Shown: positions 44,659-51,791 of the stretch, one piece after another
Layout of the letters: each line of letters opens with the position of its first letter
How positions within the stretch are numbered: position 1 is the stretch's first letter
Source of the DNA: an uncultured bacterium
GTDB lineage: Bacteria > Actinomycetota > Coriobacteriia > Coriobacteriales > Eggerthellaceae
DNA: 64,000 nt
Reading direction: 5' to 3'
NCBI GenBank assembly: GCA_937890835.1
Contig: CALADF010000049.1
Location: 3,830-67,829 of the forward strand
Notes under the pieces: generated by a model
Databases searched by the model: none
Told to the model about the DNA's origin: nothing
Seen by the model: the letters and a program-made list of their open reading frames with translations, nothing else
Made by a program: the position numbers and the translations under genes

Positions 44659-45311
44659 AAAAGGAAGTTGGAAACACGCATCTCCCCCGAGGTTCGAATG
44701 AGCAATTCAGGATCGGGGATGCCGCCCGTATACAAGCCGCGCTCGAATATCTCCTCGGATAGCTCGGGCATCTTCTGCGACGTCTCGGCCTCGAGCACCG
44801 CATAGCGCATGCACGCCTCGACCGCGTGAAGTATCTCTTGACGGGCGCCGTAGTTCACGGCGACGACAAGCGTCATCCCGTCGTTGTCGCGCGTTTTGCG
44901 CCAAGCCTCGTCGAAAGCCTCGCGCGTCTCTGCAGGAAGCGCCGAAAGGTCGCCGATCGTCATCACCCTGACATGCTCTTCATGCAGGCCATCGACCTCC
45001 GCGAGCATGGTTTTGGCGAACAAGTCCATGAGCCCGATGACCTCGTCTTGGGGCCTACGCCAGTTCTCGGTGGAGAAAGAATAGATCGTCAGATAGCGCA
45101 CGCCGAGATCCGATGCGCAGCGAATGGTCTCGCGCACCGCCTCGATGCCCGCCTTATGCCCCTTCAACCGATTGAGTGCGCGCTTTTTCGCCCATCTCCC
45201 GTTGCCGTCCATAATGACGGCGATATGCTCCGGGACGGCCGCTGCATCAAGCTCGCTAAGATCGATATCCGCAGGCGGATCGGGGAATATGTACTCGAGC
45301 GTCTTGTTCAT
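44535..45311 (-). CDS. uppS: Undecaprenyl-diphosphate synthase (cis-isoprenyl transferase)
   Basis: HIAVIMDGNGRWAKKR...LTIYSFSTENWRRP...RTSGEMRVSNFLLWQ. ATG 45311 chosen; the track start at 45332 is a TTG. Confidence 0.9.
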   Translation of the reverse strand: MNKTLEYIFPDPPADIDLSELDAAAVPEHIAVIMDGNGRWAKKRALNRLKGHKAGIEAVRETIRCASDLGVRYLTIYSFSTENWRRPQDEVIGLMDLFAKTMLAEVDGLHEEHVRVMTIGDLSALPAETREAFDEAWRKTRDNDGMTLVVAVNYGARQEILHAVEACMRYAVLEAETSQKMPELSEEIFERGLYTGGIPDPELLIRTSGEMRVSNFLLWQIAYSEFVCTDVLWPDFDRYELLRCILAYQKRERRFGGV

Positions 45312-45586
45312 CTTACTGGCGAGGATTCGCAAAGGCTAGACATCGCAATCCTGATGTAGACGTCTAGCAAACCGCCCCAACGACCACCAAGCGCGTGACA
45401 GCACCCTCGCAGACCCCTTGTCTCCTTTGCTCTCAACCCAACAACGTAAGGCAACTGAAACCCTGCGATAACTATTTTCTGCAAGATTATCTTGTTCAGT
45501 ATACGCGAAACGAACAGTCATCCCCGAAATGCGCAAAGATCGGCTTTTCGAATACATGCGAACCAACTCCAAGCGAACAGTAACGC

Positions 45587-47134
45587 TTAATCAAATCGTT
45601 TCACCAAATCAATGAGCTGCTGCCGAGAGTGGACGCCCAACTTAGCATATATATTCCTCGTATGGTAATTAACCGTACCAGCGGCGATATAGAGTTCGGA
45701 TTGAATAAACGCAGACGAACAACCTCGCGCGAGCAAACGGAAGACATCCACTTCGCGACGAGAGAGAGAAAAGGATGACGCGACAACATCACATTTCTCC
45801 TCCAGGGTCATTTCATCAGAACAGACAACCTCCCCATCTTTTCGATTGGAGGAGATTCCGTCATGCGATGCAAGTTCCAGGGAAGGATCAGGATTAATCT
45901 CATCCCTCGTATCCGAACCTGTTGAACCCAACCAATTCGCGCAAACGACTTGATCTTCCCAACCGCTTGCTTCCGAAGGCCTTACGTCTTTTTGAACCTT
46001 TTGGACCTTTACTATAGCCACAGAAAGAGCAACGGCAAGCACCTCCACGCCAACGAGGACAACGAACAGAGACGCTTGCGAGTTCAGCAGAACGCCATAC
46101 GCAAAACTCACGCGAGATGCAACATACCAGCCCGCACTGTTCAGCAACGTGCCAACTACACGCATAAGAGCAGACACTCTCAGCGCATCGAGCGAGAAGA
46201 ACTCGGCGAAACCCACCGCCACAATAAACAACATAACTTCAACGCCCAGCTCACCTATAGAGATGAACTGAGCCAAAGGTGCGGCATCGCCCAAAACAGT
46301 ATACGGAACGAGAACTGCCACAAGAAAGCACACGGGAACGACGAATGCCGACACAAAACCAGACCGCTCCATACGAAAAACGGCAACCCCGCTCACTACG
46401 ATAGGAACAAATGCCACAAGCGCATAGAAAACATATGTGTAACCGCTCGACGATGAAAAAAAATCAAGAAAACCGGACGACATGTAAAACACAGCGATGG
46501 GGAAAAGTAACGTAAGATAGTTTAAGGGACGATCTTTCGAGCTGCACTCAAGCTCATCGCGAGGCCATGGCTCCAACCGGACCAGATGAAACAGCACGCC
46601 AGAAACGACTGGTGAAACTACCGTGGCGACACGCAAAGCGTTACCCGGCAAGTACATCAGAGTTACGCACACTCCAACCGACATAGCCATGAGGGTCGGA
46701 AAGCTCCCAAGGGCGACGCCTAGTCCCACTCGCCGATACGCAACTATCCATTGCTGAGCCATTACGCCAGAACCGACGCCCGTAAGGATACCGCCAACCC
46801 ATATAAACACGACAGCGAGATATGAGGGGGGATCCGCCATAAGCACCACGGTTCCCACCACCATCGAAAAAGGAGCTGCAATTTTCGCAAAAGACGCCGT
46901 AAGAAATTCAACGCGACCGAACGGCGCAAACGAAATAGCTAAAAGCGTCAGCGACATGACAAGAGCGCTCACAAGGTAAGGTCCACTCATGAGAGACACA
47001 GGTGCTGCAGCCTCTATGCCAGCAGTCTGAGCATAAAAGAGCAGATAGATCCACGAAAGAAGAAACACCACACCCGTGTAAACGGGCGGTACGCCGATAA
47101 ACTCACTGCGCCGGATTCGACAATCCTCCATCAT
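45587..47134 (-). CDS. Membrane-embedded LuxR/GerE-family transcriptional regulator (~12 TM N-terminal domain plus C-terminal HTH)
   Basis: C-terminus LSRREVDVFRLLARGCSSAFIQSELYIAAGTVNYHTRNIYAKLGVHSRQQLIDLV (GerE HTH). About 12 hydrophobic helices precede it. ATG 47134 with an AGGGGG RBS. Confidence 0.8.
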   Translation of the reverse strand: MMEDCRIRRSEFIGVPPVYTGVVFLLSWIYLLFYAQTAGIEAAAPVSLMSGPYLVSALVMSLTLLAISFAPFGRVEFLTASFAKIAAPFSMVVGTVVLMADPPSYLAVVFIWVGGILTGVGSGVMAQQWIVAYRRVGLGVALGSFPTLMAMSVGVCVTLMYLPGNALRVATVVSPVVSGVLFHLVRLEPWPRDELECSSKDRPLNYLTLLFPIAVFYMSSGFLDFFSSSSGYTYVFYALVAFVPIVVSGVAVFRMERSGFVSAFVVPVCFLVAVLVPYTVLGDAAPLAQFISIGELGVEVMLFIVAVGFAEFFSLDALRVSALMRVVGTLLNSAGWYVASRVSFAYGVLLNSQASLFVVLVGVEVLAVALSVAIVKVQKVQKDVRPSEASGWEDQVVCANWLGSTGSDTRDEINPDPSLELASHDGISSNRKDGEVVCSDEMTLEEKCDVVASSFSLSRREVDVFRLLARGCSSAFIQSELYIAAGTVNYHTRNIYAKLGVHSRQQLIDLVKRFD

Positions 47135-47164
47135 GACACCCCCTGGAATCAAGCGGTCCCCACT

Positions 47165-47203
47165 CCGCCTCATGTGGTCTCATTATGAGACCACATGAGG
47201 CGG
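47165..47203. repeat. 39-bp perfect palindrome (19-bp arms, 1-nt centre) in the divergent LuxR/MFS control region
   Basis: CCGCCTCATGTGGTCTCAT-T-ATGAGACCACATGAGGCGG. I verified this by writing out the reverse complement. Confidence 0.95.
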
Positions 47204-47412
47204 GCCTTTCGATCGAAGAGAAAAACAATAAAGAATTAATGGGTACTTCCATAACACTAGCGTCGTCACCAATGCTCCACTTTTCGACCTGATCAAACAA
47301 ACAATACGTGACCACAATGATTGTGCGGGGCATAAAACAGCGCCTGCCCCTATTCTCCAAATCGCAACAGCGGATTCGAGAGACGAATCTGCGCGACACG
47401 AAGGGAACTCTC

Positions 47413-48606
47413 ATGGAACTCAACATCAGCAACGGAAGGAAGTGGCTTGCTTTCATAGCATTAGCCCTGTCCTCCATGTGCACATTAGGCGATATGGTCA
47501 TAAATCCCATCGCCGCCGCTTTGTTCGAGGTCTTTGCGGGCCAGTCGGAGGCGTTGATCAACTTCTCCATTACTGGACCGGCACTTGTAGGCCTCCCTTT
47601 TGGCGTCCTCGCAGGCGTGCTGTGCGACCGCATAGATAAAAAAATCGTTATGGTTACAGGCTTTGCAATCTTCGTCGTCTCAGCCTGTTTTGGGGGCGTT
47701 GACAATCTACCCCTATTTGTTACGCTTCGTTGCTTCGCCACTGGCGTAGGCTGGGGCATTACGAATACCGCCGCTCTTTCCATACTGGCAGTCATGTACG
47801 CCGACGAAGCGGAGCATGGCAAGTTTGTTGGCTGGTACAACATGGTTATGTCAATCATGGGTGCGCTCATGGCTTTCGTAGCTGGCATCCTCGCAGTAGG
47901 AGGATGGCAACACGCCTTCTGGACTTACTACATCTCCATCCCCGTTCTCGTTATGCTCATCATTTTCCTTCCGAGCATGAGACCCACTTCTCATTCCAGC
48001 AACTCTAAAGAGAAAGAGTCTGGAGCGGCTGACGCTGGCTGGTGGAAGGCTCTCGTCCCTCTCACTATCCAAGTGTTCTTTGTTGCCCTTGGCTTTTTTG
48101 TTTCCCTGTATATGATCGCCTTATATGTCACAGACGCAGGTATTGGCGACGAAGCATTTATAGGTGTCCTTAGCTCCATCTCCACCATTGCCACCGCTAT
48201 CGCCTCCGCCGTATTCGGTGCTCTCTATGCAAAATTCAAGAACGCGGTTTACTTGCCCGGTTTGTTCGTCATGGGCGCATGCTATCTCGTCATGAGCTTT
48301 TTCCCCAGTCAGATAACCGCAGTCGTATGCATCGCATTACTGGGTCTCATGTGGCCAACTTACTTTTGCTACTTTTACGCACGCTGCACCGAGCTCGTCC
48401 CAGCATCAAAGGCAGGCACGGCCACATCTATCGTCGCATTATCGGACGGGCTTGCCGCAACAGCATGCTCGTACCTTCTCACTGGCTCCATGAGCATCAT
48501 GGGGGTCGATGCAGTCGGCGCGTGGATCATCCCGGGCGTCATTTTGCTCGCCACGGGCATTATCTCCGCCATTGCGTTTTTGGCATCACGCAAGAAGAGT
48601 AGCTAA
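47413..48606 (+). CDS. MFS transporter (paralog 1)
   Basis: 12-TM profile. AAGGGAA RBS before ATG 47413. About half the residues are identical to the 50526..51791 product over aligned blocks (e.g. ATGVGWGITNTAALSIL). Confidence 0.8.
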   Translation: MELNISNGRKWLAFIALALSSMCTLGDMVINPIAAALFEVFAGQSEALINFSITGPALVGLPFGVLAGVLCDRIDKKIVMVTGFAIFVVSACFGGVDNLPLFVTLRCFATGVGWGITNTAALSILAVMYADEAEHGKFVGWYNMVMSIMGALMAFVAGILAVGGWQHAFWTYYISIPVLVMLIIFLPSMRPTSHSSNSKEKESGAADAGWWKALVPLTIQVFFVALGFFVSLYMIALYVTDAGIGDEAFIGVLSSISTIATAIASAVFGALYAKFKNAVYLPGLFVMGACYLVMSFFPSQITAVVCIALLGLMWPTYFCYFYARCTELVPASKAGTATSIVALSDGLAATACSYLLTGSMSIMGVDAVGAWIIPGVILLATGIISAIAFLASRKKSS

Positions 48607-50525: not shown

Positions 50526-51791
50526 ATGATGACTTCATCCCGCGATCTGCCAAAATGGCAACTCATCCTCGCGCTTACAGCGCTGTTCCTTTCCTCGATG
50601 TGCACAATGGGCGATCTTGTCGTAAGCCCCGTTGCTGCCAGCATCTACAATTCGTTCGACGATTCTCCCGAATGGCTTGTCAATCTCGGAGTAACCGGCC
50701 CAGCACTTTTCGGGCTCCCCTTCGGTCTCGTTACGGGTTTTCTTTGTGATAGGGTCGACAAAAAGAAAATCATGGTCACAGGGTTCACCATATTCGCCAT
50801 ATCCGCCGTATTCGGAGCCATGTACGATAACGTCTACTATTTTGTCAGTATGAGACTACTCGCCACAGGAGTAGGATGGGGAATCACAAACACCGCAGCC
50901 CTTTCAATCCTCGCCGACTTATTCGTAGATGAAACTGAACACGGAAAGTATGTAGGCTGGTACAATTCCGCAATGTCAATCATCGGGGCCGCGCTTTCTT
51001 ACGGCGCGGGCATTGTCGCCAATGGCACATGGCAAAACGCTTATGTCATGTACGCGATGGCCATTCCAGTGTTAATAATGCTTATCGCTTTTCTTCCCAA
51101 CTTTCCGCCTTCGAGACCCACGGCAGAAGCTGTAAAAGAAATCGAGGGCGTCTCCATGAGCTCCGCGGCAGCTCTCGCACGTGCAATGTTCCACCAGAGA
51201 AGCAAAGAAGTTGAAGAGGGGGGTTGGTGGAGAAAACTCGCCTCCCTGTCGCTCCAAGTGTTCTTAGTAGCAACCCTTTACTTCATCATCCTCTATCTCA
51301 TATCGATTTACGTTGCCTACACTGGCGTAGGGGACGAATCTTACTCGGGAACGCTCATGTCTATCATGACGATCTGCACCGCTACAAGCTCCCTAATGTT
51401 CGGAAGAGTCTACAAGCACCTCAAAGACCGAGTATACATTCCCGCCCTTTTTATCATCGGAGCCGTATTTCTCATGCTCGCATTTTTCCCCATTGCCCCT
51501 GTTGTCACCGTCGCACTAGCAGCCGCAGGCATTGCTTGGCCATTCTACTTTTGCTATTTCTACACGCACTGCACACAAATTGTTCCCACATCAAAGCAGA
51601 GCACCGCAACGAGCATAGTGGCTGCGGCGAACGGACTAGCGGTTGCAGCGAGTTCGTTTCTCCTGATGGGAGCGATCGACGCTACAGGCGGAAAATGCCT
51701 TGATGCCTACCAGCTGTTCGGCTTTGCGATGATAACCATCGCCTCCGTCTCCGCGATCTCCTCTATTTCGAAGCGAGCAAGCTCCAACTAA
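50526..51791 (+). CDS. MFS transporter (paralog 2)
   Basis: GAAAGG RBS before ATG 50526. 12-TM profile. Paralogous to the 47413..48606 product. Confidence 0.8.
   Translation: MMTSSRDLPKWQLILALTALFLSSMCTMGDLVVSPVAASIYNSFDDSPEWLVNLGVTGPALFGLPFGLVTGFLCDRVDKKKIMVTGFTIFAISAVFGAMYDNVYYFVSMRLLATGVGWGITNTAALSILADLFVDETEHGKYVGWYNSAMSIIGAALSYGAGIVANGTWQNAYVMYAMAIPVLIMLIAFLPNFPPSRPTAEAVKEIEGVSMSSAAALARAMFHQRSKEVEEGGWWRKLASLSLQVFLVATLYFIILYLISIYVAYTGVGDESYSGTLMSIMTICTATSSLMFGRVYKHLKDRVYIPALFIIGAVFLMLAFFPIAPVVTVALAAAGIAWPFYFCYFYTHCTQIVPTSKQSTATSIVAAANGLAVAASSFLLMGAIDATGGKCLDAYQLFGFAMITIASVSAISSISKRASSN

Follow-up and report, generated by a model that had tools for sequence, protein, structure and literature searches.

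The 12-TM LuxR activators DadR, HcdR, and CadR have been described in Eggerthella lenta, and autoregulation has been suggested for DadR (PMC9734109). A DNA binding site for the 12-TM LuxR family was found neither in PMC9734109 nor by a full-text literature search. The luxR gene located in the window (the whole 64-kb stretch of DNA analyzed here) had the same build as these activators, namely a membrane domain of about 11 to 12 helices followed by a C-terminal GerE HTH, and it likewise lay beside metabolic genes that it would presumably control, the divergent operon being conserved in 12 orthologous loci (see below). The presumed target differed: a catechol dehydroxylase in Eggerthella lenta and an MFS-amidohydrolase-MFS operon in the window.

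The intergenic region between luxR and this operon contained a 39-bp perfect palindrome. GerE-type proteins bind inverted repeats, and the lux-box and NarL-type operators of GerE/LuxR regulators are about 16-20 bp long and conserved together with their regulators. The palindrome was likewise dyad symmetric and lay beside a LuxR-family gene and a divergent operon, but the operator size and the conservation fitted the inverted repeat CCATAA-N5-TTATGG (47224-47244) and not the 39-bp palindrome. Horwitz and Loeb (Science, 1988) reportedly engineered a promoter in which supercoiling extrudes a cruciform over the -10 region and thereby represses transcription; the palindrome similarly spans a predicted -10 region and could extrude and hide the box, although the promoter of Horwitz and Loeb was synthetic and tested, whereas extrusion of the palindrome and an effect on transcription would be hypothetical. 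Kelchner and Wendel are said to have described, in 1996, minute inversions that affect the loops of hairpins in the non-coding DNA of chloroplasts. Here, too, the unpaired center may have flipped to its complement with unchanged stems, and it is polymorphic among very close relatives, but the loop is a single base and the host a bacterium, and with a single-base loop a flip is indistinguishable from a T-to-A transversion.

Template switching at quasipalindromes is an established mutational mechanism in E. coli (PMC7202029), and short inverted copies arising via short-range template switching have also been described (PMC9435742). The palindrome would resemble the cases from E. coli reporters (PMC7202029) and human mutation clusters (PMC9435742) in three respects: (i) an inverted copy of adjacent sequence centered on a prior short inverted repeat, (ii) perfection of the palindrome without net length change, and (iii) mutability of the site afterwards. 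The known quasipalindrome cases usually correct a few bases, whereas about 14-17 nt would have been overwritten here in one step, as judged by comparison. We propose, with a probability of roughly 0.55, that the palindrome, confined to this one species, represents a recent inverted duplication that would have originated by template switching, and not a conserved regulatory site.

Gene organization of the luxR/MFS block

The first-pass annotation had assigned a LuxR-type regulator and a divergent MFS-amidohydrolase-MFS operon, and these identities held (GerE, MFS_1, Amidohydro_3, and MFS_1; Table 1). The block from 45.3 to 51.9 kb had a G+C content of about 52%, compared to 60-65% around it, and the luxR/MFS block was located between frr and uppS in conspecific contigs; we read it as an inserted island. 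No second regulator gene was present within the block, and no full-length paralog of the LuxR regulator was present in the genome.

In public gene calls, the first MFS transporter was a 429-aa product starting from ATG 47317, which lay inside a second, shorter palindrome (see below). The 397-aa model starting at 47413 was better because the orthologs aligned from MELNISNGRKW behind a conserved Shine-Dalgarno sequence, with no conserved frame upstream. One conspecific sequence, L010 (ena:ERZ1761039 contig_4057), lacked a 237-nt segment lying between uppS and the end of luxR (window 45290-45526), and its match to the window ended some 40 nt inside the MFS gene (beyond 47453), after which it continued as unrelated DNA; this indel-rich assembly may represent a real rearrangement or operon deletion, or a chimera.

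Table 1. Coordinates of genes and sequence features in the luxR/MFS block (window numbering)
Feature	Position	Strand	Remarks
luxR, 515 aa	45587-47134	-	GerE HTH at residues 456-510; ~11-12 hydrophobic helices ahead of it (crude hydropathy scan)
A8 homopolymer (T8 in coding sense) inside luxR	46456-46463	.	A9 in 8/31 strain sequences
39-bp perfect palindrome (19+1+19)	47165-47203	.	spans ~-28 to +11 of the predicted luxR promoter; species-specific
CATAAT, -10-like hexamer of luxR	47182-47187	-	core ATTAT on + strand at 47182-47186; comparative inference
Asymmetric center base	47184	.	T in 30 sequences (window included), A in 2 (L029, L031)
Site B, AACAATAAAGAATTAATGGGT	47224-47244	.	degenerate copy of AACCATAA-N5-TTATGGG; center near -59 of the predicted luxR start
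Site C, AACAATA-cgtg-ACCACAAT	47300-47318	+	two half-sites; ~-63 to -45 of the predicted MFS promoter
Second palindrome, CACAAT-G-ATTGTG	47313-47325	.	overlaps the second half-site of site C
TATTCT, TAnnnT -10-like box of the MFS operon	47351-47356	+	conserved offset in orthologs
MFS transporter 1 (MFS_1), 397 aa	47413-48606	+	start backed by orthologs
Amidohydro_3 metal-dependent hydrolase, 543 aa	48721-50352	+	
MFS transporter 2 (MFS_1)	50526-51791	+	start TTG 50463 or ATG 50526, uncertain

Sequence, rarity, and folding of the palindrome

The + strand of 47165-47203 was CCGCCTCATGTGGTCTCAT-T-ATGAGACCACATGAGGCGG. An inverted-repeat finder applied to the 64-kb window gave two 19-nt arms that were 100% complementary and 1 nt apart, and the dyad symmetry of a LuxR/GerE-family operator was present in these arms. 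It was the longest perfect inverted repeat of the window, the next two having 17-nt arms; both the 39-bp extent with 19-bp arms and the exceptional length for the window, as put forward by the first-pass annotation, were confirmed, and the distances given there were right (30 intervening nt on the side of the luxR ATG at 47134, and 210 nt on that of the MFS ATG at 47413). The random expectation was about 2e-6 perfect hairpins with arms >=19 and loop <=8 per 64 kb (64000 x 9 x 4^-19). The whole 2.33-Mb assembly contained five perfect-hairpin loci with arms >=19 bp (loops 0-8 nt) against a chance expectation of <1e-4, and the majority of the long hairpins of the genome were terminator-like, with A-run/T-run flanks and loops of 3-8 nt. 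The middle of the palindrome was A/T-rich (TCATTATGA). The 39-mer folded as single-stranded DNA with -23.4 kcal/mol (z -9.7), and the luxR leader RNA containing it folded with -55.6 kcal/mol (z -6.5).

The first-pass annotation had suggested a search for further copies, many dispersed ones being taken as a sign of a repeat element; the arm proved to be single-copy in its own genome, the sole other match being a 3-mismatch chance match. The palindrome core (3 mismatches allowed) and the intergenic region had no match in 200 genomes of the same family, an exact 25-mer of the palindrome had none in a collection holding one genome for each of 185,579 species, and the palindrome had none in plasmid and phage collections. 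The Rfam 15 covariance models gave no match up to E = 1 across 46900-47700.

Orthologous loci and control-region elements

Twelve orthologous loci (L007, L012-L014, and L019-L026; LuxR 44-64% identical by tblastn) were compared together with the window, giving 13 loci in total. They were drawn from homolog contigs and from 300 family genomes searched at the protein level; with the window's own genome counted, 11 of 301 were matched. The nearest non-conspecific LuxR homologs were 60-64% identical, and one of them was named Ellagibacter isourolithinifaciens by its source. All 12 loci had the MFS gene (60-88% identical) divergent from luxR, with the amidohydrolase gene next wherever the contig extended. 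The palindrome arms were absent from all 12, and the orthologous luxR leaders displayed no comparable hairpin (z -0.4 to -1.6, compared to -6.5 in the window). On this comparison, the palindrome is restricted to one gut-bacterial species and is young.

The regulator was far more diverged than the adjacent transporter in every ortholog pair (e.g., 69% vs 92% and 48% vs 85%), i.e., this sensor-regulator evolved several times faster than the neighboring operon. The palindrome was also considered as the point at which recombination would have joined a regulator of foreign origin (62%) to a conserved operon (83%), and this was rejected: the LuxR/MFS identity gap is general among the orthologs and therefore marks no junction at the palindrome.

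Three elements were recognized in the control region. Element A was a single ATTAT per intergenic region, invariant in 13/13 loci and read on the luxR strand as CATAAT in seven loci, GATAAT in five, and TATAAT in one; it was always located 42-43 nt from the left end of the conserved inverted repeat of element B, with unalignable sequence in between. The palindrome center TCTC-ATTAT-GAGA was element A, exactly centered. ATAAT is best read as the -10 box of luxR, which would put the luxR start at about 47175 and the palindrome at about -28 to +11; the placement of the palindrome in the luxR control region by the first-pass annotation was right. A weaker TAnnnT box (TATTGT/TATGGT), which the left half of site B forms when read as its reverse complement, could alternatively serve as the -10 box, and the palindrome would then be wholly transcribed. 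ATAAT was invariant at all five positions, stricter than the TAnnnT of the MFS operon, and it could have another or an additional role.

Element B, AACCATAA-N5-TTATGGG, was a 6-5-6 inverted repeat (CCATAA-N5-TTATGG) kept in all 12 orthologous loci, with the matched variant CCATAAA/TTTATGG in L013 and L019; the window copies of sites B and C deviated slightly from the consensus. Some lineages had an extra AACAATA/TCAATAA half-site to the right of site B. The orthologous counterpart of site C was AACCATA-N4/5-(C)CATAA, and the start of site C was 51-53 nt upstream of the TAnnnT box in the 12 loci where both were located. This box lay about 55-70 nt ahead of the MFS start and was found at the same offset in the versions TAGCCT, TATCCT, TATTCT, TAGATT, and TAGTAT. 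With a half-site matrix built from the orthologs, the four top-ranking matches of the intergenic region of the window were those of sites B and C, site B scoring 9.5 and 8.5; the palindrome arms (GACCACATGA) came next with 3.56 bits, which was at chance level for the 556 scanned positions and equal to the positionally conserved half-site at 47310. Site B, rather than the palindrome, is likely to be the LuxR box, and its position relative to the predicted luxR start would suit positive autoregulation as suggested for DadR (PMC9734109). Site C would be the activator site of the MFS operon promoter.

The second palindrome pointed out by the first-pass annotation did exist, but it lay 3 nt to the left of the approximate position given there, and it was not palindromic in the orthologs. 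A whole-genome regulon search with CCATAA-N5-TTATGG (<=2 mismatches) gave 23 matches, compared to 21 for the reversed control, i.e., no excess. Both left half-sites (47224-47230 and 47300-47306) were AACAATA in the window and AACCATA in all orthologs, the same C-to-A change being seen at both; together with a LuxR only 60-64% identical to its nearest orthologs, these twin changes may reflect co-evolution of the regulator and its sites. The 13-locus comparison provides a testable map of the control region, composed of the candidate motif with its direct half-sites, two predicted promoters, and fixed spacings. It points to the 21 bp of site B as the first to be tested, with the 39-mer as a control and not as the prime candidate. 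This map and the recurrent frameshift in luxR (see below) are more useful than the palindrome itself.

Variation within the species

The comparison within the species covered 31 conspecific sequences (98.4-100% identical), which came from exact-protein look-ups plus a flank-anchored metagenome scan that added one strain. Counting the window, the palindrome was identical in 28 of the 32 sequences (27 conspecific ones plus the window), and 30 of the 32 had perfect arms; all strains were within 1.6% of each other, and retention of perfect arms is therefore not evidence on selection either way. The remaining variants were of two kinds: (i) T-to-A at 47184, which was the only difference of L029 and L031 (from different studies) from L030 over 3,548 nt, and (ii) arm changes, namely G47187A and C47191T in L011 and G47199T in L055, none of which was compensated on the opposite arm. 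The 47184 T/A polymorphism may be an interior inversion of the palindrome, or a simple transversion that L029 and L031 have in common by ancestry. Four of the 42 variable positions found over 1,818 nt fell inside the 39 nt, compared to 0.9 expected (Poisson P = 0.0135). The palindrome thus resembled a mild hot spot of mutation rather than a structure maintained through compensatory substitutions. The altered left arm of L010 was discounted because this indel-rich assembly had 26 gap openings in 1,944 nt.

The homopolymer inside luxR was also variable. Its A9 version encoded a 294-aa product that had lost the HTH, and the LuxR protein cluster also included C-terminal parts as ORFs of their own (215-276 aa). 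A9 occurred on at least five haplotype backgrounds, three of which also held A8 strains; A7 was seen in one long-read assembly and was unreliable. The A8/A9 pattern fits recurrent slippage, either phase-variation-like or as repeated loss, and this recurrent frameshift suggests that the luxR module has been repeatedly switched off in natural populations.

Origin of the palindrome

In the proposed inverted duplication, the ATAAT box of the ancestral luxR promoter would have lain within a short mini-palindrome, CAT-T-ATG. During replication, this mini-palindrome would have primed a fold-back template switch that copied about 14-17 nt of neighboring sequence, inverted, over the other side, leaving the overall length unchanged and yielding perfect 19-bp arms across the core promoter. 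The sequence CATTATG, with its 3-bp arms, was present at element A in 7/13 loci, window included (6/12 orthologs). ATTAT lay 81 nt from the conserved FIGVPPVY codons in the window, compared to 80 nt in L007, and its distance to site B was 42 nt in the window and 42-43 nt elsewhere; the near-constant ATTAT-FIGVPPVY distance fits overwriting, not insertion. When the outer 14 nt of each arm were compared with the nearest orthologs, which were not independent of each other and had highly diverged leaders, the right arm matched at 7/14 positions and the left arm at 3/14, a weak hint that the left arm would be the derived copy. Alternatively, the 8-mer AATCAAGC was common to L007 at a 20-nt offset, and a 20-nt insertion plus a 19-nt deletion would fit.

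A palindrome formed by such a template switch would probably act at the DNA level only. Each strand may fold to a hairpin on single-stranded or negatively supercoiled DNA; this would put the -10 box at the hairpin tip and would make the site prone to further template-switch mutation, including the flip of the center base. A cruciform had also been raised by the first-pass annotation; a DNA-level effect of a hairpin or cruciform on the luxR promoter is physically plausible, and at most the basal transcription of luxR would become sensitive to supercoiling. The palindrome is probably a mutational curiosity, yet it would clearly illustrate how a long perfect palindrome can form in nature on a promoter box, with its center still mutating.

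Alternative readings of the palindrome

One possibility offered by the first-pass annotation was a hairpin in the 5' leader of the luxR mRNA. In that case, transcription would start upstream of 47203 (e.g., from TATTGT at 47224-47229 on the minus strand), and a 19-bp stem about 20 nt before the ribosome-binding site could stabilize the mRNA or limit its translation. This would agree with the very strong fold of the leader, with the location of the palindrome between conserved site B and the start codon, and with the occurrence of the upstream TAnnnT hexamer in both the window and the orthologs. The reading was nevertheless weakened on several sides: the hairpin had no counterpart in any orthologous leader, the three strain variants broke pairs and none was compensated, Rfam gave no match, and the invariant ATAAT is the better -10 box. 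With CATAAT as the -10 box, the start would fall inside the left arm and only the last 11 nt or so of one arm would be transcribed, so that no RNA hairpin could form. The palindrome is probably not an RNA element, and we regard a leader hairpin as unlikely. A protein operator over the luxR core promoter, also raised by the first-pass annotation, is distinctly improbable. RNA polymerase would be blocked there either by LuxR, autoregulating negatively via a pair of everted GACCACATGA half-sites, or by some other repressor that binds the palindrome as a dimer or tetramer. The dyad symmetry, the overlap with a -10-like box, and the resemblance of the arm motif to GACCACAATGA at the second conserved half-site of site C (3.56 vs 3.67) agree with such an operator, as do the signs of autoregulation in the 12-TM LuxR DadR (PMC9734109). 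However, the arms were found in 0/12 orthologs while sites B and C were kept, and site B together with the half-sites of site C, not the palindrome, co-varied with this regulator family; moreover, the arms scored at chance level, their half-sites are everted and 19 bp apart compared to 11 bp in site B, perfect 19-bp arms exceed what a dimer footprint needs, and the block lacks another regulator gene.

In a selected DNA switch, either cruciform extrusion would render the luxR promoter responsive to supercoiling, or the center flip would toggle the -10 box between CATAAT and CATTAT and create cell-to-cell variation. The perfect arms, A/T-rich center, and stable DNA hairpin agree with such a switch, two independent samples revealed a T/A polymorphism of the center base on a single haplotype, and the same gene has the slippage-prone A8 tract; but a single ordinary mutation inherited from a common ancestor may account for the T-to-A change, and CATAAT to CATTAT alters a weakly weighted -10 position. 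We regard this reading as highly improbable. If that long shot were true, the switch together with slippage of the A8 tract would generate population heterogeneity in the expression of the acquired transport/hydrolysis module. The chance that the palindrome is a mobile-element remnant or dispersed repeat (MITE or REP type) or an intrinsic terminator is practically negligible, even though perfect hairpin-forming inverted repeats are typical of both classes and the majority of the other long perfect hairpins of the genome are terminator-like. The palindrome is single-copy and has no match elsewhere in the collections searched, and it is therefore not a dispersed repeat; REP, MITE, and IS-end origins were rejected on these grounds. 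The flanking genes are divergent and the palindrome tails, GCCTTTCGATCG and AGTGGGGACC, have no T-run on either strand, and it is therefore not a terminator; the terminator scan made no call, in agreement with the first-pass annotation, which had argued against a terminator.

Restriction-type sites and other long palindromes of the genome

The inner arms of the palindrome (47177-47192) constituted two convergent GGTCTC/GAGACC (BsaI/Eco31I-type) sites 5 nt apart, which is probably a coincidence. Two further near-loopless long perfect palindromes, which have no relation to that at 47165-47203, were present in the genome (C36:43449-43488 and C57:6599-6637; L016 and L017): (i) TTGGAGCCTCTCCAAAAACG/CGTTTTTGGAGAGGCTCCAA (20+0+20), which lay within an N6/N4 DNA methylase ORF, and (ii) a palindrome with the arm AGATAGCACCCATGGCGCA followed by the center G (19+1+19), which was located 35 nt past guaA and followed by TTTGTGT, being terminator-like with a T-rich tail.
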